Below are positions 3,499-52,193 of a DNA stretch of 64,000 bases, one piece after another. A program made the translations under genes and the position numbers. This DNA comes from an uncultured delta proteobacterium (GTDB lineage: Bacteria; Myxococcota_A; Polyangia; Haliangiales; Haliangiaceae), in contig CAVXTW010000015.1 of the NCBI GenBank assembly GCA_963764695.1, positions 221,845 through 285,844 of the forward strand. The letters run 5' to 3'. The stretch's first letter is position 1, and each line of letters begins with the position of its first letter. Below the pieces are notes generated by a model. It saw nothing but the letters and a program-made list of their open reading frames with translations, did not search any database and was not told the origin of the DNA.

Positions 3499-3533
3499 TC
3501 GACCGGGCGTGAGCGCGCGGCCGTGATCGGCCC

Positions 3534-5073
3534 ATGGCGGTGCTACAGTGCGCTGCCATGGGCTGGTCGCGTCGCGAGGTGCTGGCCGCGCTGGCCGCGG
3601 CCGGCGCCGCACCCGGATGGAGCGCGCTCTTGAGCGCGTGTGGCGGGGCGCGGCCGGCGCCGGCCGTCGTGCCGCGGGAGCCGGTCGCCGCCGAGACCGT
3701 CGCCGGGCTGCGCGATCAGCTGCGCCAGGTCGCGGCTGACCTGGGCCGGCGCTTCCGCTCCGTCGCGGTGCGGGCCGAGCTGGGGCGGGCGACGCGCGCG
3801 GTGGTCGAGCCGGAGGAGCGCGGCTTCGATCAGCGCGGGCGGTCGAGCCTGGTCCTGGCCGGGTTCGATGGCGCGGGCTGGTTCGAGCAGGCGACGTCGG
3901 ATTCTGTCGCGAGATGGAGTAGCGGCGGCGGCGGCGGCGCTGAGGGCGCGGGCGGTGCGGCGGACCATCGTGCCTCGGGCGGTGGCGCCGGCGGGGGGAG
4001 CAGCGAAGGTCGCGGCTGAGCGAGGTCAAGCTCGGCATCGATCCGCGCGACAAGCCGATCGGCGACTGGCTCGAGCGCGCCGGCGCGTCTGCAAGAGCGG
4101 GCGGCCAAGGTGGGCGGCAGCCGACTGGTGTACCGCGCGACCGCCGTCGAGGTGGACGACAGCGACGTCATGTTTCATCGGCGATGGACGCGACCTGGCC
4201 CAGCGCCTCGTGCGCACGCAGGCGCGGGTGCTGTTTCTGGCCTGGACGGGAGCGATGCTGGCGGCGGAGGAGGCGACCGCATCGGGCGCGCTCGGCCTCG
4301 AGGGCGCCGACATCTCCGGTGGCGAGATCGAGCGCGCCGCCGAGGGCGCCCTGACTCTTCTGACAAGCTCGCAGATGGAGGCCGGCACGCGCGAGCTGCT
4401 GCTCGATCCGTCGGTGGCCGCCCTGCTGATCGGGTGTGGCGTCGCGCGCGGCTTCGAGGGAGACGCGTGGGTGCGCGGCGCGCGCGCGGAGACCATGCAG
4501 GATAGAGCGGGCGCGGCCCAGGCGGTGACCCTGCACGACGATGCGACCGCGGGCCGCGCCTATGGCGGCTACCGGTTCGACGACGAGGGCTTTCCGGCCG
4601 CCCCGCTGGCGCTGATCGAGCGCGGCGTGGTGCGCGGCCCGCTTTGCGACGCGGCCGCGGCGTCGGCGCTGCGCCGTCCTCGCACCGGACACGGTCGGCG
4701 AGTCGGCCCGCTCGATGCGGTCGAGCCGCGCCCCTCGCACCTCGTGCTGGCGCCAGGGACGCGAGCGAGAGACGATCTGATCGCCGCGGTCAACGGACAG
4801 GGCTATCTGATCGAGAGCGGCGTGGACGGCAGCGGCGATCCGGTATCGTGGCGGGCGGCGGTGCGCGCGCGGAGGGCGCGAGAGATCGCGCGCGGCCGCC
4901 TGACCGGGCGCGTGTACGGGCCGGTCGTGGTGGCCGGCGACGTGCCTGCCCTGCTCGGCGCGGTGCGCGGCATCGACAAGGGCGTGCAGGCGTTCGGCTG
5001 GCGCGAGCGGGGCGCGGCCGTTTCGGTGGCGACGCCGTCGGTGCTCACGCGCGGCTGGGTGGGCGTCGAATGA
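3534..5073 (+). CDS. TldD/PmbA-family metallopeptidase with a twin-arginine (Tat) signal; appears disrupted by about 4 frameshifts
   Basis: N-terminus MGWSRREVLAALAAAGAAPGWSALLSAC (RR motif). Protein-like text switches frames at roughly 3900, 4020, 4090 and 4180. The C-terminal half (GGYRFDDEGFPAAPLALIERGVV...) is the conserved TldD/PmbA C-domain, and no HExxxH motif is seen. Confidence 0.6.
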
Positions 5074-5156
5074 CCGAGGTGTTCGGGTGCGCGAAAGCGG
5101 CCGTGTCGGTGGCGACGCCGTCGGTGCTCACGCGCGGCCGGGTGGGCGTCGAATGA
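5012..5156 (+). repeat. Direct near-perfect tandem duplication (~62 bp units, 83-bp period) of the 3' end of the first TldD/PmbA gene, including its stop codon
   Basis: gcggccgtttcggtggcgacgccgtcggtgctcacgcgcggctgggtgggcgtcgaatga at 5012..5073 is repeated at 5095..5156 with 2 mismatches. Confidence 0.8.
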
Positions 5157-5172
5157 TCGATCGGAGGCCGGC

Positions 5173-6540
5173 GTGGCGGTGACGGTCGAGCGGCTGGTGC
5201 GGCTGCTCGACGCCGCGGCCGGCGTCGACGAGTGGATCGCGGTCGAGTCGCGGGTGCGCAGCGTGTCGCGCGCGAGCGGGGCGCGGCCGGTGCGCAGCGA
5301 AGGCGAGGTGGTGTCGCTGAGCGCCGTCATCCTGCGCGACAGCGAGCAGGGTCGCGGCAGCGCGCGGCTGTGGCTCGACGGTGAGGACGCGGACGAGGCG
5401 CGGGCGCAGCGGCTCATCGCCATGGCCTCCGAGCGCGCCGCCCTCACCCTCGGTCCGGCCTGGACGCTGCCGGCGCCGGCCGCACCCGCGCAGGTGACGG
5501 TCGCCGATGCCGAGCTCGAGCGCGATCCGACCGGCGCGGTCGACCGGGCCATGGCGCAGGTCAACGCGGCGCAGGGCCGGCTGGCCGCGATCGGCCGCGC
5601 GCGCATCGAGGTGCAGGTGCACTCGCACGCGGCCGAGACCAGCCGCGGGTTCGCCAGCCAGTACACCGCGACCGCGGCGCTCTACGATCTGGCAGCCAGT
5701 GTGGGTGGCGAGAGCGGGTCGCCGCTCGAGCGCGTGCATGGATGCGTGCGCAGCGCGGCGCGGCTGTCGCTCCACCGGCGCATCGCCGACGCGGCCCGCG
5801 CCGCGTCGCGGCGCAAGGGAGCGCGGCCGCTCCAGCCCGGGCGCTACGATCTGCTGCTGCGGCCGGGCGCGATCGCCGGGCCGGGCGCCGGGCTCGATCG
5901 ATCGGCCGGCGCGGCCGCCTACGGCTGGTTCGCACCGCTGGTGGCCCACGCCGACGCGGAGCGGGTGCGCCTCGGGATCAGCCATCACCGGCCGGGCCAG
6001 CCGGTGTTCGCGGCTGGGGGCGGCGAGGGTGTCAGGCCCGGTGCCGCGCCGCGCGCCGGCGATGCCGATGTGTTCACGCTGGCGAGCGACGGCACCATCG
6101 ACTTCGGCCTGCTGAGCGCGCCGTTCGGCGAGCTGGGCGAGCCGGTGCGCCGCTTCGAGATCGTGCGCGACGGAGTGGCCGCCGGGCTGTCGCTCGATCA
6201 CCGCGAGGCCGCGCTGGCCCACACCACGCCGAACGGCGGCGTGCGCAACCTGGTACTGGACGCGGGCCGGACACCTGCAGCCGGGCTGGCCGCGCCGGGC
6301 CAGCGGCCGCTGCTCGACGTCGCGCATCTTTCCTGGATCGACTGCGACCCGCGCAGCGGCGCGCTGACCGCCGGCATCGGGGCGGCGACCGTGCGCGGCG
6401 CGGCGGTGACGGGCGGCCTGGTGGTCGGCAACGCGTTCGACCTGCTCGGCCGGGCGCGCCTGTCGGCGGAGACCGGCACCCTGGCCTGGTACCGCGGGCC
6501 GATCGCCATCCGCATCGACGGCGTGGACGTCACGGCTTGA
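5173..6540 (+). CDS. TldD/PmbA-family protein (second member of the pair)
   Basis: 455-aa intact ORF starting at a GTG, immediately after the duplicated 3' end of the preceding TldD-like gene. The C-terminal region fits the PmbA/TldD fold (GLVVGNAFDLLGRA...). Confidence 0.7.
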   Translation: MAVTVERLVRLLDAAAGVDEWIAVESRVRSVSRASGARPVRSEGEVVSLSAVILRDSEQGRGSARLWLDGEDADEARAQRLIAMASERAALTLGPAWTLPAPAAPAQVTVADAELERDPTGAVDRAMAQVNAAQGRLAAIGRARIEVQVHSHAAETSRGFASQYTATAALYDLAASVGGESGSPLERVHGCVRSAARLSLHRRIADAARAASRRKGARPLQPGRYDLLLRPGAIAGPGAGLDRSAGAAAYGWFAPLVAHADAERVRLGISHHRPGQPVFAAGGGEGVRPGAAPRAGDADVFTLASDGTIDFGLLSAPFGELGEPVRRFEIVRDGVAAGLSLDHREAALAHTTPNGGVRNLVLDAGRTPAAGLAAPGQRPLLDVAHLSWIDCDPRSGALTAGIGAATVRGAAVTGGLVVGNAFDLLGRARLSAETGTLAWYRGPIAIRIDGVDVTA

Positions 6541-8379: not shown

Positions 8380-9677
8380 TCGCCCGCCGGCCGATGAAGG
8401 CTACGCGCCGCGGCTCGCGCTCACCTTCGCGACCACGCCATCGCTCGAAGCCCCGCGCATTGCTTCGCGCGAGGACTCGTGCGTGAACATGGCTCCTCGA
8501 GGAGAGAGGTGGCGAGCTGGTCGCATACTCCCGACTGCTCGCTCCATGACCGAGATCCATTGGTGCTTGGCCAGTCGCGCTCTGCGGACTCGACCTCGAA
8601 GCGAAGCTCCTCGCCGAACCAGAATTGACGCGACTGTGTTGGGCCCGCGCCCGCTCTCAAGCCGAGCGAGCTCGATCTAAGTTGGCCAAGGTCGTCTGTT
8701 TCGACGGTAGCGATGGAGCACGCAAAATGACCCGTGGCGTGGCGTTACTCGGAGAATCGCGCCGTCATCATTCGCTCCTCGCTATTGGTCCTCCTTGATG
8801 ATGAAAATCGGTAGAGCATGCTGCGATCATTGTCGCACTCTTGTGCGCCCGTCGTCGTGAGAAGCTCCAGAGTCCCCTTGTCCTGTGCGTCCTCGATGGC
8901 CTTGGTGCTGTCAAGAACGCACGGAAAGTTGTAAGTCGCCAGGTGAGCGGCGCGCTCAGGACGGCCACGACGGTATCTTGGTCCGTGGAAGAAAGGTTCT
9001 GAACCACTCAGCGAGCCGAAGCGTTTCCTCTGGTGAGTCTACTCCCTGGCGGGTTCCGTATTGCGTCAATGATTCCCTGGCCGTGATGATAACGGCAAGC
9101 TTGATCGCCTCAATGAACTCGCGTTGATTCATCGATCGAATAATCCGGGTAGAGTCATTTGTTCAGGTCAATCAGCTCCTGCAATGCATCGGCGGGGGCA
9201 TCCGTGGACTGGCGGAGATTGCGAATCCCTCGCGCGAGCAAGATTCGTGCTGTTCCATTGTACGGTCCCTTCAGGGCGGGGAGCGGCAAGTGCTCTCGAG
9301 TAGGGAGCGCGATGGCCGGACCGCTGCTGCGATCGTAACCAGGCACAACCTGTTTCATTGCATGCCTGCTGGCCCTCGTGATGGTGGGCGAGATCATCGC
9401 CGACCCTGGAAACACGCTGCACTCCTCGAATCGCCCGACAGGTAGGGCACGACGCCGCGGCCAGCGGCAGCGGGCCTGCCGACCGTCCGAGAGCGGCAAG
9501 GTCGAAGAGCGCGGACCCGCCGGCCTCCCGCCATGCGGCCCTGGGCAGCGAAGTAGAGCGTGCCGACGAACCGGAAGAGAGCCTGCGAGGCTGTCGGCGG
9601 TGTGAGCAGCGGCTACTGTACCGTTCAGGCATTCGACCAGGCAGCCGCTCCGGCAGGGACACGTGCGGACCAACCAG
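8380..9677. other. Lower-GC (~55-58%), ORF-poor region immediately 3' of the RHS toxin tip; candidate immunity gene(s) or orphan toxin remnants
   Basis: GC visibly drops relative to the ~70% flanks. Only short, weak ORFs (e.g. minus 9155..9400 ending ...ILLARGIRNLRQSTDAPADALQELIDLNK, minus 8421..8660). Position matches where Rhs immunity genes normally sit. Confidence 0.4.
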
Positions 9678-10097
9678 CTACCGGCCCGGACTCGATAGTC
9701 TCTCTGGCGATCTGACGCATCCAAGCCCGGAGTGGCTCACGAGTTCATTGGGCATACACGCCGGACAAGCGGGATATCCCGAGGAGATGCCGCTAGAGTG
9801 GCCAACAGCAGCGGACCCTGACCCCATCGCCCATGGCTGCGCTCCACCCCTGACCCAGTTGAGACGATATCGGTGGGATTGTTGTCGTCCGAGCTCGGGG
9901 TGCCGGACGACCCGCCGTCCCAAGCAAGTCTCTGCATGATGCTCCCGACGGCGTTGCGAGGCCACGCTACCTACGTCCGGGCAGCCAGCGCAGACGGCGC
10001 GCAACGTGAAGTCGGTCATCGAGCCGAGCAACCCGCCGCCGCCGCCGTCCCCGCTGGTCACGTTCGAGATGAAATCGACGATGTCATCCCAGATGGA
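9678..10097 (-). other. C-terminal toxin (hypervariable) domain of the RHS protein, downstream of the DPxG autoproteolysis motif
   Basis: ~140 aa after IDPSGF (SIWDDIVDFISNVTSGDGGGGG...). GC falls across this segment. No recognisable toxin family by eye. Confidence 0.5.
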
Positions 10098-13000
10098 AAA
10101 TCCGCTCGGGTCGATGAAGGTGGTCGGGTTGTTCCAGGCGTAGCTGTAGCGGTTGTGGCTCTGGCTGAAGAGTGGGGCCTGGACGAAGGGATCGGGCGTG
10201 AGGAAGTGGCGGGCCTTCGGGTCGTAGATGCGGCCTTTCATGTTGATCAGGCCGATCTCGTCGTCGTGCTCGTGGCCGGTGTAGCCCTCGTGCGGGCCGC
10301 CGTGGAGGTCGTCGTCGTAGGGCGTATACGTCGGCTTGATGCGGCGACCCCAGGGGTCGTAGAAGAGCTCCGCGAGGAAGCCTGAGATTGCCCGGCCGGC
10401 CCGGTTGGTGACGAGGGTGGTCGAGCCCTGAAGGTCGATGTGCAGGTATGAGACCGGCGTGTTGGTGATCTGCCCGTCGGGGGCCTGGATTCGATTGACC
10501 TGAGCGACGATGCGTCCCTCGGCCACGATGTTGTGTAGATTCTCGGCCTCTCCGCCGGCCGCGGCCCGGATGCGGCGTTCGAACAGACCACCCACGTACA
10601 GCGTCGATTGGTTGTCGTCGCGCTTGAGCACTCGCGTGCCGTGCGCGTCGTAGGCATAGAAGGTCAGCCATGGGCCACCTTCGCCGATGCCGCCGGTCAA
10701 CAGCGTCGGCAGGCCCCAGCTGTTGTACTCGATGGTGCGGTTGGGGCCGCTTGTCTGTCGCCCCGCGGCGTCGTAGCCGTACGAGATCGTGTTACGCCGG
10801 GTCATGGCGTGCGGAGGCGCGTTCTCGCCGTACCCGTACGTGGCGTTCTGGTTGGTGGGCGCGCCTGTCACCACCTCGCTCTCGAGCTTGCCGACGACGT
10901 CGTAGTCATACGATGCCGTGAGCTGGGCCGTTCCGTTGCTGGCGCTCCACCGCTTCAGGCGATCGAGCTCGTCATACGCGTACGTATCGGTGCGCCCGTG
11001 AAACAGGTCAGATCGGCTGATGACGTTGCGATTGAGGTCGTAGTCGTAGGCGAGCTGGCCGAGGCGACCGATGGTGCCGGGGCCCATGACGTCGCGCGTG
11101 CGCAGGAGCCCGACCTCGTCGTATTCATTCGTGGTGACGACGCCGTTGCCGTACCGCTCGCTGGTCAGCTGACCGGCGACGTTGCGGTCCTCCGCGGTCC
11201 AGTAGGGCTGGTCGGTACCCGCATCCCTGATCTGAAAGAGGTAGCCCTGCGCGTTGTAGGCATGGGCGATGGTCAGGCGGCCAGCGCCCGCGGGCGCGCC
11301 GGGAAGAACCGGATAGGTGATGGTCGACGGGCGCCCGATGTCGTCGTAGCCATAGTCGATGTCGTACGATGTGCCTTCGATGTTCCATCGCGTCGAGGAC
11401 GGCCGCCCGATCGGATCGTAGTCGTAGGCAATGGTGACCCCATCGGGGCTCGTGGAGCTGGCCGGCTTGCCGATGCCATTGGTGCGGGTGTCCCAGTTGT
11501 GAATGGCCAGGCCGTCGGGTGAGTTGACCTGCTCGATGCGACCCAGGGCGTCGAACTGGTACTCGGTGACGGCGTCGTTTCCATCAATCTCCTCGGTCGG
11601 CTCGCCGAAGGCGTTGTAGCTCGAGATCGTGGTGCCGGCGCTCGGGTCCACGAGCACCGTACGACGCCCGAGCTTGTCGTACTCCAGCGCCTGGCCGGTT
11701 CCGTCGGGCGCAATCACGTCGCTCACGAGAGCGAACGGGTCGTACTTGAACCGGGTGACGAGCCACGCTGTTGACTCCGGGTCGTCTTCGTGGCGCGAAT
11801 CGATGAGCCCGTCCGCTCTCTCGAGGACATAGCTGTGGTTGCCCTCGGCATCGTGCGTGTGGCTCTCGAGCCCGATGTACTCGTGGCTCACGGTCGCTTC
11901 GTCTGGCGCCGTGCTCGCGAGAAGCCGATCGAGGCCATCGTGGACGTAGGTCGTGTTCTGGATCGGGCCCTCCGAACCTGTCGCGAACGGTCGCGACACA
12001 GAGCGGATGCGCCCGAGGCGATCGTATGCGGTGCGAACCGTGCTGAAGCCGCTGATGAAGGCCGGAATGGTTTGATCGACCGGTCGGCCGAGCTCGTCCA
12101 TCACGACGGTCCTTGCCGCGAGGACTCCGCCGGATCCATCCGGCACCGTCAGGACATGGATGAGCGGGCCGAACGTCGCGTATCGCTCGAACCCGCCATC
12201 GGCATGGTTGACCTCGCGCAAGCGGCCGAAGCGGTCGTACTTCATGGTGGCCGGGACGATGCCGTTGGCGTCGGTGGTGTCGAGAACGACTCCGAGGCCG
12301 GTGTGGACGGTCACCGAGGTCGTCTGATCGAGCGCGTTGGTGATGGTCGCCGGGTAGAGGCCGAGGCTGTCGTAGGTGAGACTGGTCGTGCGAGTCTCCT
12401 GATCCTCCCCCTCCGCATTGGCGACGGTGACGGACGATACGTTGCCGAAGCCGTCGTACGCGTAGCTGGTGGTGAGGAGAAACTCGGCATCACCCGGCTC
12501 GACGATGACATCCTTGATGTTGCCGTTGTCGTGCGTGTCGAAGCCGACCTGTCGGGTCTGGCACTTGTTCTCGGGACGCGTGCACGACGTCGAGGTGCGC
12601 GTCCGCGGCAATGCCAGGAGCCAGTTCTCGAAGTCCTGCTCGTAGGTCATGGTTTCGACCTGGTCCGAGCCCGGCGCCGCCGTGGTGACCTGCTTCGGGC
12701 TCTGGAACTCGTCGTACAGCAACGACGTGGTCTGCGAATGGAGCGCGGTCCACGCCCCGCTCGGGCCCACCTTCTCGCGGTCCGAGACGGACACGCTGTC
12801 GAGCTGCGTGAACCACGTGCCGGGCTGCGTGCCGAGTTGAAACTTGAGCGCCCGCGCCGTCGTTCGCTCGTAGAACACCGGCGAGCCCTCGCGCGAACCC
12901 GACGTGACGGTGTACGTGATCTGGCGCGGCTGGCCCGCGAAGGGATAGACGTACGTCGTGAACCCGTTGCCGTCCGGGTAGTGCTGGGCGGTGTGATTGT

Positions 13001-15668
13001 CGAACTGCACGACGGTGAGGGCATCGCCCCGCTCCACGTCGCGGATGTCGTGCTGTTCGAACCCCAGCCACCCGCGTCCGCGCAGGTCGGCCCGCGCCCC
13101 CCAGTAGCGGTGCGTGAACTGGCGCCACGGCGACTTTGGATCCACGCCGTTGGCCAGCCAGTGGGAGGACACGATGCTGCCGCCCCGGTGCGGACACGTG
13201 AGCGGATAGGAGCAGTTGACGAGGGCTCGGCCGTGCACGGACGCGTTCGCCAGGGTCGTGTACTCGACCTCGGCGCGTACCCCGATGCCGGCTACCTTGA
13301 CGCGATAGAGCTTGTCCGGGATGTCGCCGACCCGCTTGTGCAGTCGAAGGAAGCTGGTCGTCGTGTCCGGGGTGTCCGACCAGACCTGGGCGATGTCCAT
13401 GAGACCGTCGCCGTTGAAGTCCAGCGGCTGGATACCGGAATACGGAAGCACCCAGCTCGCGTTCGTGGCGATGTTCATGCCGCGTCGATCCCAGGCCCGG
13501 CCGGTCCATGTGTAGAGCTGGATGCCACGTGCGTGATCGCCCGTGTTCTCGGGTGTCCCCGCGTGGATGAGCAGGATGTCGTCGGCGCCATCGCCGGTGA
13601 AGTCGACGACGCGCACGCGGAGGTTGTCGTCCGCCACCGGGGGGCAGTCGTCGATCTCGTCATTGGGGGGACTCGGGGGGACCGTCCAGCAGCCTCGAGA
13701 AGCCAGTCCCGCTCCCCAGCTGCACCTTCAACCCCGTGCACGGGTACACGGCGTCTTCGACACCGTCGCCGTTGATGTCCGCGAAGTGAAGGTTGCGGCG
13801 GTCCAGGTTCTCCGGCTCGCGAAGGAAAGGCAGATTGAACTCGAATGACCCACTCGTCCATCTCACCGTCGTCGTTCATCTTGATGGCCCCGTACCCGGG
13901 GTCGGACGGGGTCCACAGGAGCAGCCGGGGATTCGCGCCGGTGGCCGCGACGCTGCGAAACTGGTGGTCGAAGCGGGGCGATGTCGTCCCAGGTTTCGAG
14001 CGGTCCGTGCCAGTTGATTCCATCCACGTAAGGGCCGAATCCGGTCGGCAGATTCAGGCGGTACGTCCACTGCAGCCGGTTGTCTGGCTCCTGGCCGGCA
14101 GCGCGCACGATGCGCGGTCCGACGTAGTCGGGCAGACCATTGCCGTCGAGATCGACGAAGTATCCGGCCCACAGTCCACCGAGCCGACCGGACTCTCGCA
14201 TTCTCGTGAATATCTGAATGTCGGTGAAGACCTGCTCGTAGGTCGATCCGGTCGATCGATACAGCGAGAACTGCGTGATGTCGTCGAGCACCGGAACCTC
14301 GACCATGAGATCGAGCCGTCCGTCTCGATCGAAGTCGATGGGCCGCACCCTGGGCTCCTCGTCTGGACCGAGGCTCGGAATGCCCGCGTCCCGCGGGTCG
14401 CCGAATCCGTCGCCGGTACTGAAGCGCAGCTTCCAGTCGTTCTCCATGTCTCGATAGATGAGATCGTCGAGGCCGTCGCCGTTGATGTCGCCAGGAATGT
14501 AGTAGCGACCGTGGCGGGCCGCCTGCGCCACGTCGGTGACGTCGGTGTCGATGCGCTCGTAGGTGGCGGAGGTGCCGGTGGGTCCAGTCGAACTCCAGCG
14601 CGTTCAGGCAGACGGGCGGTTCACCGTCCGCCGGATCCCCGCCGTCGCATTCGGTGACGCTGCGAAGCTGACTGCGACCGGTCATGCCGCCGTTCACGTA
14701 GCGCAGCGTGTACTCGCGCAACACCCCCGCTCCATCGCTGATCCGGATCGTGCTGAGGCGACGCTCCCACGCCATGTGAATGCTTCCGGGCTCGTCGGTT
14801 CCGGGATGGAAGCTGTCGACCTTGTCGGTCCTGTCTTCGTATCCGAACTCGATCGTGCGATCGGGCCCGTAGGTGATCCGCTCCGGCACCATGTCCACGG
14901 CCCACTGGCCGTCATCGCTCTCCACTGTCGAATACTCGACAGACGATGGCATTTCCGTTGCGGTCTTCGACACTGGTCAGCGCCCACGCGGCGGTCAGCC
15001 GATCGATCGTGGGTTCGAAATGCGGATCTTCATCATCGAATCGCGAGGCATGGAGCCCGTATGCCTTGACCGGATCGTAGGTCATGATCCGGCCGTCCTT
15101 GGTCCAGACCTTGAACTGGCGCGGCGGCCGTTCCGGTCCGTCCGAGCTGTAGGCTCGGACGCGCGCGAAGGTCTCGCGCTCGGTGCGGTAGTCCTGCTCC
15201 TCGCTCCACTCCAGGTCGGTCGGCCGGAGGCGTTCCCCGTCCAGGCAGTAGGCGTTCGTGCGGAGGAAGTCGGGGTTCTTGCTTCCGCCGTCCTGGGCCC
15301 ACGTGCGCGCGCATGGCGCGATGGACGACAGGCCGGCCGAGAGCGACCAGCCGACACCGACGAGGCCGTTGCCGCCCTGGGAGTTGTAATGAAGGGCGAG
15401 CCCGGGCTCGAGGCCGCCGCGACCGTCCGGCACCCATAGCGGGAGGTGGTACTCCGCCGCGCCGTTGTGATTCACCGTGAGCGTGCCCTCGGTCCAGCCG
15501 GAGCTTGGCTGCGTGTCGACGATGCCGCCCGGCGGCGGCGCGAGAGCGCGCCGCGGCGGAGTCGCCCGCTCCAGTGGAGCCTTCGCTGTCGTGGAGCGAG
15601 GACGCGCTCTCGTCCGACAGGCACGCGGCCACCAGCGCGAGGCCAAAGACGGCCACTCGGCTCGTCAT
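9678..15668 (-). CDS. Large SpvB/FG-GAP/RHS-repeat polymorphic toxin lipoprotein (Tc-toxin BC-fusion-like), ~2000 aa; N-terminal third carries about 5 frameshifts
   Basis: Start ATG at 15668 with lipoprotein signal MTSRVAVFGLALVAACLS. SpvB/TcC N-terminal signature (GAAEYHLPLWVPDGRGGLEPGLALHYNSQGGNGLVGVGWSLS) at ~15500..14950, a TcdB-mid-N-like stretch at 14950..14580, and FG-GAP repeats (DINGDGLDD, IDFDRDGRLD, VDLDGNGLPD) at 14560..13660. The intact 1319-aa ORF 9678..13637 holds many YD/RHS repeats and the RHS core end NNPTTFIDPSGF at ~10115..10098. Frame changes at ~15560, ~14950, ~14580 (a ccc homopolymer), ~13866 and ~13650. Confidence 0.85.
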
Positions 15669-16057
15669 CCTTCGGCTGGCAGCCTGCGCGGTGCGCCGCA
15701 TCCGGCGGCAGCGGAATGCACTGGATCTCTGGCTACGTCTCATCATCTTCTTCCCCCGGCAGCGGATTGGGCGAACTGCAGGCAGACGACCGCCGTGCGG
15801 CCGAATCGGGCCGTCGTGTCGATCGCGCACGAAGGTGGCCTGGCGCGAACGCCGAGCGCGTGCGCGATCTGGGTCGCGGCGAGCGGCTCGATCAGCAGCT
15901 GAGCGGGGTCGCCCTCAGACGGTTGGTGGCGGTGCGGACGGGCCGCGACGCTTCGCTACGGCGATGCAGTCTCCTGGTGGTGGTCGTTCGCATCGCAGCG
16001 AGTCACTCGCATCGCGATGCTTCACCACTCCTGCCACAAGAAAACGCGCCTGAGAAG

Positions 16058-16074
16058 TGCCGCAAATTGCGGCA
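16058..16074 (-). terminator. Short GC-rich palindrome (gccgcaa-a-ttgcggc) ~35 nt after the stop of the C39-like gene; weak terminator candidate
   Basis: 7-bp arms with a 1-nt loop. Only a weak T-rich stretch follows on the minus strand. Confidence 0.25.
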
Positions 16075-16108
16075 GGGGGAGTGCCACCTACCCGGGGGAG
16101 AGTCTTGA

Positions 16109-16759
16109 TCAGGGCGCGGACGCGGTGGCGCCCGGCGCCGTCTCTGACCGGCGCGGCGATTTCTCGGACGGGCCGAGCACGACGAGCGCGGGGCGACCGG
16201 CCGGATCCCACTCGGCGGCCAGGTCGCGCCACTGGCGGATGCCGAAGCCGCCGGCCGGATCGATGGTCGCGACCTCGCGGCGGGTCGGGTGGAAGCCGAC
16301 CACGACCTCGAAGTGGCTGAGGCGGCGGCTGCCGCGCGCGCGCAGGAGGCCGACAACGACGGGGCGGCCGCGCTCGAGCTCGTGCACGAGCGTCGTGCGG
16401 TCGGCGCGGATGGCGAACGCGGTGAGTCCGCGCGAGCGGGCCAGGTCGCGCAGGGCGCCGAGCTTGGCGCCGCGGCCGCCGCTGCGGGCCTCGGCGACCA
16501 CGGTCGCGTCACGGAGGGCGATCGGGCGGCCCCAGAAGCGGGCCACCATGGCCAGCGCGGCCGGGCCGCAGTCGCGGGCGGCCTGCTGCCGGATCGGTGT
16601 CACCGGGCCGGCGGCGATCCAGCCGCTGTCGCGCGAGATGGTGGATGGCTCGACCGGACGGGCCGACGACGGAAAGCTTCTGACGCATCCGGTCAGGGCG
16701 GCCGCCAGCGCGAGCGCGCCCCACGCCGCGGCGTGCGTGGGGCGCAGCGAGCGACTCAT
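16109..16759 (-). CDS. Lipoprotein with a peptidase C39-like (papain-fold cysteine peptidase) domain
   Basis: Signal + lipobox (ALAAALTGC). Motif RQQAARDCGPAALAMVARFWG resembles the Q...C-G-x-A-x-L catalytic region of C39 peptidases. Sits immediately upstream, on the same strand, of the RHS toxin gene. Confidence 0.6.
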   Translation of the reverse strand: MSRSLRPTHAAAWGALALAAALTGCVRSFPSSARPVEPSTISRDSGWIAAGPVTPIRQQAARDCGPAALAMVARFWGRPIALRDATVVAEARSGGRGAKLGALRDLARSRGLTAFAIRADRTTLVHELERGRPVVVGLLRARGSRRLSHFEVVVGFHPTRREVATIDPAGGFGIRQWRDLAAEWDPAGRPALVVLGPSEKSPRRSETAPGATASAP

Positions 16760-17049
16760 CAGAGGAGAACGACCAGCAGAACGACGCCGAGGACGATGGC
16801 GGTGGTCGATCCGATGATGACGAAGGTCGCGCCACCCTCGAAGTCGGCCGCCTTGGGCTGCGTGCGCTCGGCGGCGGCGTAGCGGGCGGTGTCAGCCGCG
16901 CGGTCCGGCTGCGCGTCCGTCCGGGCGGGCTGGGTCTCGGTTGCACTTGCGCGCGGCACCACCGGCGGGGCGGCCAGCGCGGTCGGAACGCCGGCGCCCG
17001 CGGCCAGGCACAGACTGAGAAGAGTCGCGGTCACGATTCGCTTGCTCAT
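16759..17049 (-). CDS. Small Ala/Pro-rich secreted protein with an N-terminal signal peptide and a C-terminal hydrophobic anchor
   Basis: MSKRIVTATLLSLCLAAGAG ... FVIIGSTTAIVLGVVLLVVLL*. Its stop overlaps the start of the C39-like gene (TGATG). Confidence 0.4.
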   Translation of the reverse strand: MSKRIVTATLLSLCLAAGAGVPTALAAPPVVPRASATETQPARTDAQPDRAADTARYAAAERTQPKAADFEGGATFVIIGSTTAIVLGVVLLVVLL

Positions 17050-17352
17050 GATGGGTGACATCGCAATCGGCATGCCAGCGCATCGCCGCTCCGCGATTGA
17101 TCTCCGCCCGGATGGCGCTGTGGCGGCCGGCCGCACTGTGGCGGCAAGGCTCGTCGGTTTGACAGGTGCCAGCTCATTGCGCAAACTGGATTCACAGCGC
17201 GAGCTGCCACGCGCAACCCTCTCCGGCCAGCCCATGCCTGGCTCTCAAGGGGGCAAAGGGTAGAGCCATCTTCTCGGCAGTCGAGTCGTCTCCTTCCCTC
17301 GCGACGCGGGGATGCATGGGCTCCAGTCCGCGACGCGGGAGAGGAAGAGAAG

Positions 17353-18669: not shown

Positions 18670-21184
18670 TCATTGAGGACTTGCAAACTCGACGGTGAGA
18701 CGGGCCAGCAGCTGCCAGCCCGTCTGGTCGGCGAAGTAGCGCAGAAGGCTCGTGTAGTCGCGGTAGCGCGCATCGAGCAGGTTCGAGCCCTGCAGCGCGA
18801 TCTTGATCGTCTGCTCGCCGACGCTCATCTCGGTGCCCAGCTCGGCGCCGAGCAGGAAGTAGGGGTCGGGGGGCGGCGCGAAGTCGGCGGCCAGGTCGAA
18901 GCGCCGCTGACGCGCCACGAACGTGCCGGACACCGTGGCGAACGACGGGCCCAGTCCGCCGAGCGAGGCGAGCCGATAGGTCATCGATCCGCGAACGCGG
19001 TCCGGCGGGACGAACACGAGATATGAGTCGTCGCTGACGTTCCGTGCGCGCACCATCGACAGCTGCGCGCCCAGCTCGAGGAACGGAAGCGGTGCTACCG
19101 AGACGCCGCCGTCGGCACCGTAGAACACGGCGTCGACCGGCCGGGTCACGAAGCGCGGGAAGGTTCCCCGGATCAGCACGTCGAAGATCGGCTCGCCGTT
19201 CTCGTCGATCGCCGGCGCCAGGTAGATGTAGTCGTCGATGAAGTTTGCGTAGGCGGAGGCCTCGGCGGTGACCCGCTCTCCCTGGTACGTGGTCGTGGCC
19301 GACGCCGAGTAGGTGGTCTCGGGTCCGAGGTCCGGCTTGCCGAGGCCGAGCACCGGAAAGGTCGGCGATGTTCCGTTGAGGTACTGCTCGTCGGGGTTGG
19401 GCGGACGCGACGCGGTCGACAGGTCGAGCTTGACCGACCACGCGGTCGTGAGCTGCCGGAGCCCGCCCACCGAGACCGAGACGGTGTGGAAGGTCGACGC
19501 GCAGTTCGACCGGATCCATCTCGGAGGTGCCGCAGGCGTCCTCGGCGAGCTGCCCGCTGCGCACCAGCCGCAAGAAGTCGCGCCGGACGATCGAGGCGGT
19601 GCGGCCGAGCGCGTCGTAGCGCAGACCGGCCTCCAGCTCGAACTCGTGCCCGACGAGGCGCTCGATCACGAAGGCGCCTCCGCCCCACGACCTGTGCTCC
19701 GGGACCAGCGGAAGACCGGCATACGCGTGCACCTGAGCGACGCCGACCAGGCCGACCGATCCCGCGAGGTGGAGGTGGTCGGTGAGGTGGACCGGCCGGT
19801 GCTCGAGCGCCACGTCGACGTCGTGCGTGAACAACCGGAAGTCGAACTGCGGGCCGGTCGTCGCGTCGCGGACCACGTCGTACTCGCGCCGGTGGTCCTG
19901 CTGGAAGGCGTAGCTCGCCGTGACCGTCCCGACACCGTCCCGGCGATGCCGTGCGCGGGCGATCGCCCGATCATGCGCCACGGCCTGGAATGGCCGCTCG
20001 ATGGCGAACTCGGAGTCGTACAGCTCGGCGCCGATCGGCGTCCGACGGTCGAGCTGCGAGTAGAAGTCGTCGCTCGACTCGATCCGGAGACAGGTGCAGA
20101 CGCCGAGGCGTGCCTGGTAGTGCGAGGCGGAGATCGTGTACGCGTCGTCGCCGGACCGATAGCCGGCCGTCGCGCCGAGGTTCCACTCGTGGACCCCCGT
20201 GTTGTCGAGCGGGTAGTCGGGCGTGCCCGGAGCCGCGAGGTGCTTGAGGCTACCCTCGATGCGGCCGGCCGCGCCGGGCAAGCCGGCCAGGGCCGCCTGC
20301 AGCCGGCCGGCCAGGGCACCGCCGAGCCCGTTGGACAGGCCGATCACGTGGGCCTGGCCCGCCACGCCCGGCCTGCGCGGCAGCTCGGGCGGATTGACCA
20401 GCACCGCGCCTCCGATCGCGTCCGGTCCATGACGCACGCCCGAGGCGCCGCGCACCACGGTGATCTCGTCGGCGGAGAACGGATCGATCTCCGGTGCGTG
20501 GTCGAGGCCCCAGTCCTGCGCGCGGTGGCGGACCGAATCGACGAGCAGGAGCAGCCGGCGCCCGTACTGGCCGCGAACGATCGGCTTGGCCACACCGCTG
20601 GCCGAGCGCAGCTGGCTCACGCCGGGGACATCGGCGAGCGTGTCGGAGAGCGATCGCCCGCGCGTTCGCTCCAGCGCCTCGCCGGACAGGACGGCGGTCG
20701 ACCGCATGTCCACGGGCTCGGGAGCCTCGCCCTCGATGACGATGACTTCTCCCGCCGCGGCGCGCAGCGCGAGCTCGACCGAGGCGGCCCTGGCGAGCGC
20801 GACGGTCGCGCGGGCGGGGGCGTAGTCGTCTCGCTGGACCTGCACGCTGGTCGGTCCGGGGCACAGTCCGGCGACCGTGAAGCGGCCGGCTTCGTCGGTC
20901 ATCCCCACGGCGCGCGCGTTGACCGTCACGACCGCGCCGATCACCGGCTCGTGAGTGACCGCGTCGACCACGTGACCGTCGAGCGTGCTTGCGCATGGCG
21001 CACTCTTGCCGGGTCCGACCGGCTGGGCCGACGCGGCGCCGGCGAGAGCACCGGAAATGGCGACGAGCGCCGCGCTGATGTGGGCAAGACGGTCCAAAGG
21101 AGTCCTCCATGGATCCGCCCGCGCGGCCGCGCTCGCCGTCCTCGATTCAGGGACGACCGGCGCGACCCGCCGCTGGCGGATCAT
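18670..21184 (-). CDS. TonB-dependent outer-membrane receptor (one apparent frameshift near 19460-19500)
   Basis: Signal peptide, carboxypeptidase-regulatory-like N-domain, plug domain (..GVAKPIVRGQYGRRLLLLVDSV..DEITVVRGASGVRHGPDAIGGAVLV). The barrel continues in a second frame (ORF 18670..19470, ...LLARLTVEF). Confidence 0.8.
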
Positions 21185-22320: not shown

Positions 22321-24013
22321 TCAGCCCGGTCGTCCTCGGCCAGGGAGCGTCGCGGCGATCTGCCGGGCCACTCGCACGCCGTCGAGCGCGGCCGACACGA
22401 TCCCGCCGGCGTACCCGGCGCCCTCACCGGTCGGGTAGAGACCGGGCATCGAGATGCTCTCGAGCGACGCGGCGTCGCGGGTCACGCGCACCGGTGAGCT
22501 GGTCCGCGATTCGGTCGCGATCAGCACGGCCTCGTCGGTGAGATAGCCGCGCAGGGTGTTGCCAAACGCCTTGATCCCGGCGCGCAGTTCGACCGGCGAG
22601 CGGCAGGCCCGACGACTCCAGCACGTCGGTGATGTCGCCGGCGGTCAGCCCGGGCAGGTAGCTCGACTCCGGCACCGTCGTCGATCCGCGCTTCTCGAGG
22701 AAGTCGGTCACCCGCGTCGCCGGCGCGCGCAGCGCTCCGCCCCCGGCGGCGAACGCGGCCACCTCGATGTGGCGCTGCAGCGCGATACCGCCGAGCGCGC
22801 CGCCGCGATCGGCGACCTCGGTGGCGCCATCGACATCGCCGACCTCGACGCTGACGACGATGCCCGAGTTCGCGAACTTCGAATCGCGCCGCGACAGACT
22901 CATCCCGTTGACCACGAGGCCGCCCGGTTCGGTCGAGGCCGGCACCACCCATCCGCCCGGACACATGCAGAAGGAGAAGACGCCGCGCCCACCGACCTGC
23001 TCGGCGAGCCGGTACGCCGCCGCGGGCAGCGCCGCGTGCCCGGCCGCGCGCCCGTACTGGATCTGGTTGATGAGCGGCTGCGGATGCTCGATGCGCACGC
23101 CGAGCGCGAACGCCTTGGGCTCGAGCGCGATGCCGCGCGCGGCCAGCATGGCGACGACGTCGCGGGCCGAGTGGCCGGTGGCCAGCACCACCGCGTCGCC
23201 GGTGACGGACGAGCCGTCGGCCAGGACGACCCCGGCCGCGCGACCGCCGTCGACGACGAGATCGACAACCCGCGCCCCGAACCGGACCTCGACCCCGACC
23301 GACTCCAGCCGGGCCCGCATCGCGCTCACCACCACCGGCAGCTTGTTCGACCCGATGTGCGGCCGCCCCTCGACCAGGATGGCGTCCGGCGCCCCGTGCA
23401 GCGCGAGCACCTCGATCACGTCGCGGACATCGCCTCGCTTGTGAGCCCGCGTGTAGAGCTTCCCGTCCGAGTACGTGCCCGCCCCGCCCTCGCCGAAACA
23501 GTAGTTGCTGTCTGCGTCCACCTCGCCGCGCTTGTTGAGGCCGGCCAGGTCGTGCCGCCGCGGCTGCACCGGCTTGCCGCGGTCGACGACGATCGACGCG
23601 ATTCCCTCGCGCGCCAGCTGATAGGCGCAGAACAGCCCCGCCGGCCCATCCCCGACCACCACGACTCGGGGCCCGCGCACATCGACCTCGCGCGGATGCG
23701 GAAGCCCGAGCTCGGGCGACTCCCCGGCCGCGCCGACGGTCAGGTGGAACCGCACGCGCCCCCGACGCGCATCGAGCACGCGCTTGCGCACCTCGAGCGC
23801 CGGCAGGTCGGCCGGCGCCACGGCGATCTTCCGCGCCACCGCCGCGCGGATGGCCACGTCGTCGGTCGCCTCGTCGAGTCCGACCTCGACCTCGATATCG
23901 CGCTCCGGGTCGATCCTCACGATGGCCTCTGGGCCGCCTGGACCAGGAGGCAAAGCTCGATGACCGGGACCGGGAGGAGGAGTAACAACCAGCGCACGCC
24001 GGTACCCTGCCAT
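22321..24013 (-). CDS. FAD-dependent oxidoreductase (NAD(FAD)-utilising dehydrogenase, COG2509-like); one frameshift near 22590
   Basis: GxGxxG dinucleotide motif (VVVGDGPAGLFCAYQLA). The conserved C-terminus (...GYLTDEAVLIATESRTSSPVRV...GLYPTGEGAGYAGGIVSAALDG) continues in the frame of ORF 22321..22527. Confidence 0.75.
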
Positions 24014-46989: not shown

Positions 46990-49900
46990 TCAGCGCCGGC
47001 GGCGGACCGTGACCACCACGGTGTCCGGGGCGCTTGGCAGGCCGAGCGAGTCGGTCACCACCAGCCTGAAGTTGAACTGCCGATCGGACGGCACGATCGG
47101 CGCGATGAAGAACGGCGTGGCCGTGTTCGGCAGGAACAGGATGACCCCCGCGGGCGCCGTCCACGCGAAGCGCAGCGAGTCGCCGTCCGGATCGCTCCCC
47201 GAGCCGCGCAGGAACACGATGTCGCCCGTCCGCACCGTGATGTCGGCTCCCGCATTCGCGACAGGCGGGCGGTTCACATTCGTGACGCTGACATCGACCG
47301 TCGCCGGCGGGCTGGCCAGCCCGCCGGGATCGCGCACCACCAGGGTGAAGCGCAGGACCCGGCCGGAGCGACCGACCTCGGGCGCGATGAACGTCGGCCG
47401 CGCCGCGGTCGGGCTGCTCAGCGTGATCCCGGCCGGCGCGGCCCACGCGTAGGTCAGCGCGTCCCCGTCCGGATCGCTGCTGCCGGTCCCGTCGAGCGTC
47501 GCCGTTGTCCGCTCTCCCACGGTCTGCGGCGGGCCGGCGCTGGCCACCGGCGGGCGGTTCACGGCGGCGTTGGTGACGGTCACCGCCACCGTGGCCGGGC
47601 TCGACGCGCTCACCGCATCGCGAACGACCAGCGAGAAGGTGAGGGTCGCGCCGGCGGGGCCCACCTCCGGCGCGGTGAAGGTCGGCTGCGCGGCGGTCGC
47701 GCTCGACAGCGCGATGCCGGCCGGTGCGGTCCACTCGTACGTGAGCGGCAGGTCGCCGTCCGGATCGCTGCTGGCCGTCCCGTCGAGGGTCACGACGGTC
47801 CGCTCGACGACGGTCTGCGGCGGGCCGGCGTTCGCGACCGGCGGGCGATTCACGTTGCGCACGTGGATCACCGTCGTCGCGGCCGGGCTGGTCGCCAGCC
47901 CGTCGGACACGACCAGCCTGAAGGCGACATCGATCCCGGTGACAACGGCCTCCGGCGCGACGAACGTGGGCCGGGCCGCGGTCGCGCTGGACAGCGTGAC
48001 CGGAGGCCCGGCGATCTGCGTCCACTGATAGGTCAGCGAATCGTCCGGGTCCGGATCCACCGACCCGGTCCCGTCGACGGTCACCGTGCTGCCCTCGTCC
48101 ACGGTCTGCGCCGGGCCGGCGGAGGCCACCGGCGGGCGGTTGACGTTGACCACGGTCACCGTCGTGAGCGCCGCGGCGCTGTCGGACGAGCCGTCGCTCA
48201 CCACGAGCTGAAACACCAGCTGCGACGAGCCCGGGTCGCGCAACACCGGCGGCGCGAAGAAGCGCGGACCGACCGCGGCAGGGTCGTCGAGCGTGACCGC
48301 GGGGCCGGAGACCTGCGACCATCGATAGGTCAGCGGCTCGCCGTCCGGGTCGATGCTGGCGGAGGCGTCGAGGAACACGGTCATCGGCGGGAAGGCTGGC
48401 CCCGGGCCGAGCTCCGGCACCGTCTGGTCGGCGCCCGCGTTCGCGACCGGCGGGGCGTTGCAGGTCGCCGACTGCGGGACGAGCCCGGGGAACGGCGGCG
48501 CGAGCAGCCCGCTGACCTGAATGTCGTCAATCTCCCAGCCCGGCGACGAGACCCCCGGATCGGACGCGACCCGGAAGCGGATCCGCACGACCCTTCCGCC
48601 GGCGCTGGTGCCGAGGTTGACCGACGCCGCCCGCATGGACGGATAGCCGGCGCTGGTGCCGGTGAAGGCCGGGCGCCCGGCGAGCGGGTTGCCGGCTGCG
48701 AGAAGGCCGGTGTAGGCCACGCCGCTGCCGGGAAGCGCGGAGACGTCGGTCCAGGTGGCGCCGTCGTCGGTCGAACACCTCGATGACGCCACCGTCGAAG
48801 TTGAGGTTGTTGACCGCGTCGCGCTCGAGGGAGTGGCGATGCAGGAACGAGAGCACGAGCGCCTGGCCGGGTGCGACCGCGAGCCGCGGCGAGGACAGCT
48901 CCGCCGTCGCTGCCACGCTGGCCGAGCGGCACTGGTAGGCGTGGCCGCCGGGCGAGGTGGAGACCTTTGTCCACAGCGCGTCGGGCGGCGACGAGGGGAG
49001 CGACGAGGTCTGGCCCCACACGGTCGAACAGCTCGGCGTTGTCGACGTTCGACTGGCCGGGCAGCTCGTCGGCGTTGCCGGCGAACTGGTAGGTGACCGG
49101 CGCGGCCTCGCCGGCGCCCGCGTCCGGCGTTGCCACGGCGATGGAGATCGTTGTGTCGGCGGCGAGCCCGCTGGCGGCCACGCGGACCGTCGCCTCCGCG
49201 GTGGCGGCGCGCGCCGTGGCCGGGAAGGTGATCGCGTCGCCGTCGGGGAAGACGATGCCGGGTGTTGTCGAGCTGACCGTCGCGCTCAGGGCCGGAGCGT
49301 CCGCGTTGCCGACATTGCGGAAGGCCACGCGCAGGGTGCCGGTCTCGCCGTCGTCGAGGATGCCGTCAGCGGCGCACACCGCGGTGTCGTCGTCGAGCAG
49401 GCGCGCGCCGGTCTGTTGCACGGCCGGGCCGAACGCGAAGCTCTCCACGACCGGCGTGTTCGTGTTCTCGCCGCGCGGCGGCGCGATGGCGTTGACGCCG
49501 GCGCCGCGCCTCGCGAACGCCGCCCCGCACACCTGGTAGTCGGCCGGGTCGCCCAGCAGGGCGGTGAGCAGAAGCGCGTCGCGCGCCTCGAGCAGGGTCG
49601 GGTTGGCGGGCGTCACCTTGTAGGCGGCGACGACGTAGTCGCGCATGCGGTCGCGCGCCTGGGCGAAGGTCAGCCGCGGGGCGGGGCCGACCGTGTCGCG
49701 CAGGAGGCCCGCGTAGCACTCCCACAGCATCGTGGCCCACACGGTGCCGGTGGCGTGCACCTGCGAGTTGACGCCGATGAAGTTTGGCGGCGGGCTGGCG
49801 GGGAGCGGATTGACGTCGGAGATGTGCCTGAACGTCATCGGGTTCTTCGTCATGTCCGTCGAGTACGGATAGCGGCGGATGCCGAAGTAGTACGAGTTCG

Positions 49901-52041: not shown

Positions 52042-52193
52042 CCACCACCCCCTTCACCCATCCTCGGAGGCGGCACACTAGCACGCGCTGAAGACGATTC
52101 TTCTCGTCTTTGGGGCGCACGCGGCCAATGCGTGCGTTGGCGTACGGTCCATGGAGACGCGGGACAGCCGTGGTTCACCGGTAGACTCGGGCG

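Follow-up and report, generated by a model that had tools for sequence, protein, structure and literature searches.

A polymorphic Rhs toxin gene of TcB/TcC-like build, with a predicted nuclease tip and a putative immunity gene, in an uncultured Myxococcota genome

The window analysed here is a stretch of 64,000 nucleotides (nt) from an uncultured delta proteobacterium of the Haliangiaceae (assembly GCA_963764695.1, contig CAVXTW010000015.1, positions 221,845 to 285,844). Between ~17.1 kb and 8.7 kb of the window lie four consecutive minus-strand genes: a small open reading frame (ORF), a C39-like lipoprotein gene, an Rhs toxin gene and an immunity gene. Judging from domain content, the last two correspond to a predicted polymorphic Rhs toxin of TcB/TcC-like build (SpvB, beta-propeller, RHS) and its putative immunity protein, in the genome of a soil myxobacterium (Myxococcota); the closest named relatives of the locus are Kofleriaceae metagenome-assembled genomes (MAGs). 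The features of these two genes and of the DNA just behind them are the following.

9155..15668, minus strand: Rhs polymorphic toxin gene, ~2,137 amino acids (aa) when stitched over ~16 frame breaks
15621..15668, minus strand: signal peptide with lipobox MTSRVAVFGLALVAAC, read from the translation and from the N-termini of the homologues P0003, P0004, P0007-P0010 and P0012
14945..15469, minus strand: SpvB domain (PF03534, E=7.6e-11 in the raw ORF and E=1.5e-9 in the stitched protein, aa 66-241)
13392..14489, minus strand: FG-GAP / VCBS beta-propeller (FG-GAP_3 E=2.9e-12 and 9e-16, FG-GAP E=3e-5; PF13517, PF01839)
13035..13460, minus strand: TcdB_toxin_midN region (PF12256, E=6.1e-6, 26.1 bits against a cutoff of 24.8)
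10362..13034, minus strand: RHS/YD-repeat shell (RHS_repeat PF05593 E=2.9e-26; YD_repeat_2x TIGR01643 E=5.6e-19)
10101..10361, minus strand: Rhs-associated core ending NNPTTFIDPSGF (TIGR03696, E=2.8e-17, 63 bits against a cutoff of 32.5)
9456..10097, minus strand: pre-toxin linker, resembling those of P0003, P0004 and P0125 (SSDDNNPTD, ...FVGTLYFAAQGRW...) by tblastn and frameshift-aware alignment
9158..9455, minus strand: predicted C-terminal nuclease toxin domain, Tox-SHH-like / TseN-like, which keeps ...GDDLAHHH...Q and ...REH... and has a premature stop after LNK
8750..9132, minus strand: putative cognate immunity gene, ~120 aa (MNQREFIEAIKLAV...), with its ATG at 9132 and its end at ~8750
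8500..8579, minus strand: remnant of the 3' end of another immunity gene, of the type found in strain L002 (...LAKHQWI / RSWSEQ...), where homology to L002 resumes; right recombination boundary

The Rhs gene possibly starts as far upstream as 15749. Its stitched translation (2,137 aa) has zero internal stops and is ~50% identical to the intact homologues P0003 and P0004 (2,167-2,201 aa). Intact homologues are single proteins of 2,000-2,200 aa and have the same lipobox (...AACLSD/E). The domain set that the initial annotation had read by eye, namely SpvB, FG-GAP, TcdB_toxin_midN, RHS/YD and an Rhs-associated core ending ...IDPSGF, is borne out by Pfam and NCBIfam, and the lipoprotein signal proposed on the toxin is likewise present and shared with the homologues. 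The propeller matches to FG-GAP and FG-GAP_3 are located at ~14489-14301 and ~13604-13392. The TcdB_toxin_midN match is seen only when the segment 12801-13637 is scanned alone and not in the full stitched protein; P0003 matches the same family at the homologous place. The Rhs core spans aa 1761-1847 of the stitched protein and its NNPTTFIDPSGF motif ends at 10098. From this motif the core terminus is a predicted autoproteolysis site; the end of the core is also the left recombination boundary described below.

The reading frame was followed with three references: L001 (syntenic, ~85% DNA identity), L002 (a 99%-identical strain) and P0003 (a 50%-identical protein). The N-terminal third of the gene has six frame-breaking indels against these relatives, at 15549, 14943, 14577, 13973, 13855 and 13672, in agreement with the frameshifts suspected earlier in 13600-15700. 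One of them falls in a tandem repeat, GACGGTCCCCCC, at 13660-13685 (minus strand), which is present in one copy in L001 and in two in-frame copies (GPPDGPP) in L002; of the second copy the window retains 10 out of 12 nt, hence the frameshift. The 3.6-kb RHS shell shows zero indels in the lists made against L001 or L002. Past IDPSGF only ~50 aa of the annotated ORF are in frame, and the frame is lost beyond ~9950. Frameshift-aware alignment, with the P0003 tip and with P0125 as references, placed frame switches at ~9950, 9846, 9733, 9626, 9571, 9534 and 9478 in the linker and at 9440, 9420 and 9368 in the toxin domain. The tip of ~140 aa (9678-10097) delimited by the initial annotation is therefore in frame over ~50 aa only, and the true tip reaches ~9155 through ~10 further frame switches. 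Its stop (9157-9155), after LNK, comes ~8-10 codons early relative to the family. A tracker based on codon usage and on G+C at third codon positions (GC3; Viterbi) flagged frame changes, and was too noisy for a window-wide count of frameshifts without homology support. The Rhs genes of L001 and L002 are themselves split; a real two-gene arrangement of the TcB/TcC type was considered for them and rejected, because the split points differ by strain and the intact homologues are single ORFs.

After frame correction the last ~100 aa of the tip (9455-9158) are 68.5% identical to the intact protein P0125. The toxin domain, previously described as having no recognizable family, belongs to a widespread family of putative Rhs-tip nucleases. 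This family comprises 73 sequence clusters, mostly Rhs C-termini or fragments, from Vibrio, Yersinia, Photorhabdus, Erwinia, Dickeya, Aeromonas, Volucribacter, Bacillus and metagenomes. Its near-invariant residues are D-x-L-D-I-H-H...Q...P-x-x-E-H...R...L-R...T-N-A-P...L-N-K, most of which are retained in the window. The candidate HNH-type motif reads D-I-H-H...Q...E-H in the family and DLAHHH...REH in the window; the residue before HH is I or A, whereas the Tox-SHH model (PF15652) expects S or G at this place. Tox-SHH is weakly matched by 10 of 29 family members (best E=6e-4), and the tips of the window and of P0109 give no Pfam match, Tox-SHH at E<=0.1 included. No Pfam or NCBIfam family was found for the raw tip ORF, the stitched tip, the tips of P0109 and L002, or any of the immunity candidates. 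The profile of the toxin family, compared to PDB sequences, retrieved nothing meaningful, the single match being a His-tag artefact. The closest intact homologue was modelled, and its best structural match is the fold of the DNase TseN. On the basis of this modelled fold and of the conserved motifs, the tip most probably acts as a metal-dependent DNase; it would be of the HNH/EndoVII (SHH-like) type and fold like TseN.

Downstream of the tip the initial annotation had found no confident ORF. This low-GC stretch does encode, together with the toxin domain, a homologue of immunity proteins (9132 to ~8750), both being masked by frameshifts. The immunity ORF begins 23 nt past the toxin stop and is broken by ~4 frameshifts (9089, 9013, 8999 and 8949). 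The same toxin domain is immediately followed by homologous genes of 116-121 aa in L003 (the metagenome locus of the Rhs gene P0109), in L012 (Volucribacter amazonae) and in L013 (Erwinia pyrifoliae). The pairwise E values are 3e-11 and 4e-8 for the window sequence, and range from 1e-25 to 5e-34 among the three intact proteins. The immunity family has no Pfam or NCBIfam model. The ~120-aa gene is, as judged from position and homology, the expected cognate immunity gene, with a putative protective role. The same toxin-immunity pair is found behind unrelated Rhs shells in Gammaproteobacteria. The 64-kb window contains no second Rhs copy, orphan tip or orphan immunity gene; instead of the orphan cassettes expected earlier, there is one cognate immunity gene.

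The comparison with the two related genomes delimits the variable segment. The window and L002 are 99.1% identical over 24970-10107 and 98.5% identical over 8579-1, and between 10107 and 8579 only a 70-nt island, corresponding to the SSDDNNPTD linker, aligns. With L001, a ~85% identical species, homology is lost at 10108 and regained at 8418. On the left, the break coincides with the DPSGF codon block. On the right (window 8579, L002 16276) it falls inside the L002 ORF 15812-16354, 78 nt before the stop of this ORF; behind its own immunity gene the window thus still carries a remnant of the L002 one. The tips of the window, L001 and L002 all differ, L001 and L002 having a common pre-toxin linker followed by different toxins. 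G+C is 62% across 8579-10107, compared to 70.8% for the whole window, with a minimum of 55.7% at 8800-9199, over the immunity gene; the drop in G+C from the tip downstream is thus as initially reported. Since relatives lose homology at 10107-10108, this stretch is a variable toxin/immunity region and not ordinary intergenic DNA conserved in relatives. The segment from DPSGF to the old immunity gene is an exchangeable toxin/immunity cassette, a textbook displacement of an Rhs tip with its immunity gene.

Two further observations concern the cassettes of the relatives. In L002 the ORF at 15812-16354 (plus strand, 180 aa) directly follows the Rhs stop and likely encodes the immunity protein for the different toxin of this strain; neither that toxin (ending ...WSWKSRPTFGHTFTRHGQG...) nor the 180-aa protein has a Pfam family. 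Genes of the IS21 family (IstB, with or without the rve transposase) are located in or just after the Rhs tip in L001 (14425-19235) and in L006 (16806-19123), and in L001 the IS21 gene overlaps the 3' end of the Rhs ORF.

Taken as a whole, the locus is likely an Rhs gene for a bacterial competition toxin with a DNase-type tip, and an immunity gene, tip and immunity gene forming an exchangeable cassette, and its frame breaks are probably an artefact. By analogy with solved TcB-TcC and Rhs cocoons, the RHS repeats would form a closed shell enclosing the C-terminal toxin and the SpvB/propeller part would cap it; the Rhs core protease would cut at DPSGF, freeing the toxin inside the shell. The lipid anchor may hold the complex on the cell envelope, from which the toxin would be passed to a neighbouring cell, while the ~120-aa downstream protein would neutralise it in the producer.

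Pfam scans covered most of the larger ORFs of the 64 kb, between ~5 and ~41 kb and beyond ~43 kb, and detected no gene for TcA, VRP1, VgrG/PAAR, a type VI secretion system (T6SS), or a type V (T5SS) or two-partner secretion system; the scanned ORFs encode metabolic enzymes, peptidases, kinases and a TonB receptor. Likewise no TcA gene was called in L001-L007, and the flanks of the homologue loci (3-8 kb upstream and 0.5-8 kb downstream, as limited by contig ends) show no TcA-like or other very large gene. At the far end of the window (57545-64000, plus strand), ~45 kb from the Rhs locus, there are two genes of the contractile-injection type (PVC/Afp). This region holds a sigma-54 activator (57545-58540, plus strand), a WHD+AAA ATPase (Pvc15/Afp15-like, plus strand) split by a frameshift into 58904-59806 and 59841-61487, and a Pvc16_N + CarboxypepD_reg ORF (61016-62425, plus strand), with more frame changes up to the window end.

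The upstream gene pair is on the same strand as the Rhs gene.

16759..17073, minus strand: small secreted protein, membrane-anchored at its C-terminus, of ~96-104 aa depending on the start (17049 or 17073)
16109..16759, minus strand: lipoprotein of 216 aa, a C39-like cysteine peptidase (lipobox ...LTGC; motif QQAARDCGPAALAMV)

The translation of the small ORF shows a signal peptide and a hydrophobic C-terminal anchor. The stop of this ORF overlaps the ATG of the C39 gene by 1 nt according to the ORF coordinates, as first noticed in the initial annotation. The small gene has a counterpart of 100% identity in L002 (7899-8213), and its product has no Pfam or NCBIfam family. The C39-like character of the lipoprotein, also recognized at the outset, is confirmed by Pfam (Peptidase_C39 E=6.7e-10, Peptidase_C39_2 E=1.3e-9, Peptidase_C70 E=5e-6). 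It scores above the cutoffs of PF03412 (39.4 bits, cutoff 22) and PF13529 (39.2 bits, cutoff 24) and contains the catalytic Cys motif QQAARDCGPAAL. It falls outside the NCBIfam equivalog C39_PA2778_fam, with 44 bits for a cutoff of 150 bits.

Turning to the frame breaks, about 20 in number (~16 affecting the toxin gene, ~4 its immunity gene), we think it rather likely that they are consensus indel errors of a long-read metagenome assembly; in the organism both genes are probably intact. Window genes unrelated to the toxin are also frame-split (an M36 peptidase at ~50.2 kb, a TonB receptor at ~19.5 kb, an FAD oxidoreductase at 22588 and the WHD-AAA ATPase at ~59.8 kb), and the N-terminal region of the toxin gene holds separate sets of indels in L001 and L002, neither having any in common with the window. 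In this broken N-terminal part the ratio of non-synonymous to synonymous substitution rates (dN/dS) is 0.25 relative to L001 (dS 0.48) and 0.16 relative to L002, the latter comparison resting on 15 synonymous and 8 non-synonymous changes (P=2.5e-5 against neutrality); the frame was therefore under selection until very recently. Over 8391-8575 the window differs from L002 by nine 1-nt indels and ~3 substitutions, the reverse of the usual evolutionary ratio. The L001 contig comes from the Microflora Danica MAG MFD03602.bin.2.3, and the ENA accession of L002 adjoins it. The long-read MAGs of Microflora Danica are Nanopore-only Flye assemblies with a single round of Medaka polishing (PMC12313526). 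Several points nevertheless weigh against an artefact and against the explanation as a whole. The indels are unevenly spread, with 0 in the shell, 6 in the N-terminal 2 kb (~3/kb) and ~14 in the 1.3-kb cassette (~10/kb; Fisher P=0.003), a distribution that uniform sequencing error does not predict. They lie mostly outside homopolymers; one of them, the tandem duplication of 10 of 12 nt, resembles a real mutation, and the premature stop after LNK is an apparent substitution and not an indel. In addition, we infer the sequencing technology behind the assembly of the window itself, and the delivery route of the toxin is not readable from the window. The opposite reading is that the frameshifts are real, the whole module (N-terminal part, tip and immunity gene) being a recently inactivated pseudogene that decays after cassette turnover. 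It would account for the ~20 frame breaks and the premature stop, for the non-homopolymer insertions and the duplication-type indel, for the loss of the GC3 coding signal below ~9950 and for the damage seen in the relatives (the IS21 gene overlapping the L001 tip and the broken N-terminal parts of L001 and L002). Against it stand the dN/dS of 0.16-0.25 in the broken region, even with respect to a 99%-identical strain, the lack of breaks common to the strains, the breaks in unrelated genes of the window and the excess of indels over substitutions (9 to ~3) at 8391-8575. The stitched sequence moreover remains 68.5% identical to P0125, with its catalytic residues and only one stop, and neutral decay leaves an indel-free 3.6-kb shell unexplained. 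We consider such decay unlikely. Neither uniform error nor neutral decay explains the clean shell, and no methylation or sequence motif is enriched near the indel sites; low read support for a strain-specific cassette in a mixed population is a plausible cause of the clustering. A more speculative view combines two proposals: that the clustered breaks are real, the shell being kept as a recombination scaffold or by gene conversion while the N-terminal module and the cassette decay, and, separately, that the lipobox-bearing SpvB-Rhs toxins of Myxococcota without TcA are delivered by outer-membrane exchange and not by one of the known Rhs routes. We hold it to be quite doubtful; if true, the clustered breaks would show the turnover of Rhs cassettes caught in progress in a natural population of myxobacteria.

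Two other readings concern the identity of the toxin and the role of its neighbours. The initial annotation had hesitated between a fused TcB-TcC cocoon and an Rhs toxin. SpvB, TcdB_toxin_midN, the FG-GAP propeller and the RHS shell are indeed the domain set of TcB/TcC, and the protein could be the fused B-C subunit of a eukaryote-aimed Tc (ABC) toxin whose TcA injector is encoded elsewhere. However, no TcA-like or other very large gene is present in the scanned ORFs of the window or in the flanks of the homologue loci. A dedicated immunity gene follows the toxin, as is typical where a toxin can act on its producer or on kin; Rhs tips of many bacteria carry this toxin-immunity pair, and the protein bears a lipobox. 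The Rhs toxin of TcB/TcC-like build is thus retained, and the Tc BC subunit, for which the scanned 64 kb offer no TcA, T6SS or T5SS gene, is very improbable. The C39-like lipoprotein and the small anchored protein had been proposed as accessory factors, and could be dedicated to the processing or secretion of the Rhs toxin. The pair lies immediately upstream of the Rhs gene, a position kept in L001 and L002, and in L011, a distant Polyangia MAG, a C39 homologue has an Rhs-like gene no more than 3 kb away. Conversely, two Kofleriaceae MAGs, L009 and L010, retain the C39 and small gene pair (64-69% identity) with no Rhs gene within 10 kb of it, and the Rhs loci L003, L005, L006 and L007 (homologues P0003, P0012, P0018 and P0109, the last being that of L003) have no C39 neighbour; at the present locus the C39 gene ends ~440 nt before the Rhs gene begins. 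Rhs proteins are generally considered to self-process via their core protease. Because the pair occurs without Rhs in related genomes and Rhs homologues occur without the pair, the C39-Rhs adjacency in the window, L001 and L002 is lineage-specific. An accessory role finds no support, and we regard it as improbable.

The preferred reading, an Rhs toxin with its immunity gene, places the locus in a known class. Polymorphic toxins of the TcdB/TcaC type have already been reported, including in delta-proteobacteria (PMC3482391; Zhang, de Souza, Anantharaman, Iyer & Aravind 2012). They have the same signal peptide, SpvB, integrin-like beta-propeller, RHS repeats, variable C-terminal toxin and downstream immunity gene. 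Nothing essential differs here, apart from the lipobox of the signal and the lack of a dedicated Pfam model for either the toxin or the immunity family. The TcB-TcC cocoons of Photorhabdus and Yersinia (TcdB2-TccC3, YenB-YenC) share SpvB, TcdB_midN, the FG-GAP propeller, the RHS shell and an Rhs core with DPxG, and are also alike in the predicted encapsulation of the tip and self-cleavage. In contrast to them, the present protein would be one fused, lipid-anchored polypeptide, with no TcA in the scanned 64 kb, and carries a predicted nuclease and an immunity gene where TcB-TcC tips are eukaryote-directed ADP-ribosyltransferases or similar. Concerning the tip, the DNase activity of TseN from Acidovorax citrulli (PDB 9J9W) is proven and is abolished by the H254A mutation (PMC12574953). 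The fold is shared according to the model, at 18% identity and with no sequence-level match. TseN is however a VgrG/PAAR-dependent T6SS effector and not an Rhs tip, and its partner TsiN is an alpha/beta protein with a seven-stranded sheet. Tox-SHH, an HNH/EndoVII-fold nuclease toxin, resembles the present family by its xHH motif, its later conserved H and its Rhs C-terminal location, and differs by the weakness of the matches mentioned above, absent for the window and P0109 tips.

The locus is therefore an ordinary member of a described class: the family-less tip, the ORF-less tail and the supposed accessory genes dissolve on inspection. It nevertheless carries a caution, since indels in long-read metagenome assemblies can hide Rhs tips and immunity genes from ORF-based annotation, and a tip without family or a low-GC tail without ORF may be a mere out-of-frame reading. 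The residual interest is modest. It lies in the clean and precise natural replacement of a tip plus immunity gene between 99%-identical strains, with one breakpoint at the DPSGF codons and the other within the immunity gene that was displaced; in an Rhs-tip toxin family of wide distribution and the associated immunity family of ~120 aa, both devoid of their own Pfam model and tied, through the modelled homologue, to the recently solved fold of the TseN DNase; and in the unexplained clustering of the indels.

Some details of the other genes of the window may be added. The TonB-dependent receptor (18672-21184, minus strand) has CarboxypepD_reg and Plug in one frame and the beta-barrel in another, with a switch near 19495. 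L002 has no indel there, so that this break is apparently shared and may be real or a systematic error. The FAD-dependent oxidoreductase (22427-24013, minus strand) changes frame at 22588 by a 1-nt insertion relative to L002, in which it is intact (532 aa). In 46993-52053 (minus strand), the M36 fungalysin-type metallopeptidase with a PA domain is split between two frames near 50240, covering positions 42-170 and 174-368 of the Pfam profile, and is followed by an ORF with PKD / K319L-like / cadherin-like repeats (46993-49365). Finally, the region 3500-5500 of the window, which covers PmbA/TldD-like genes, is a second hot spot of divergence from L002, with 14-22 mismatches per 500 nt compared to 0-3 in its flanks, and several indels.

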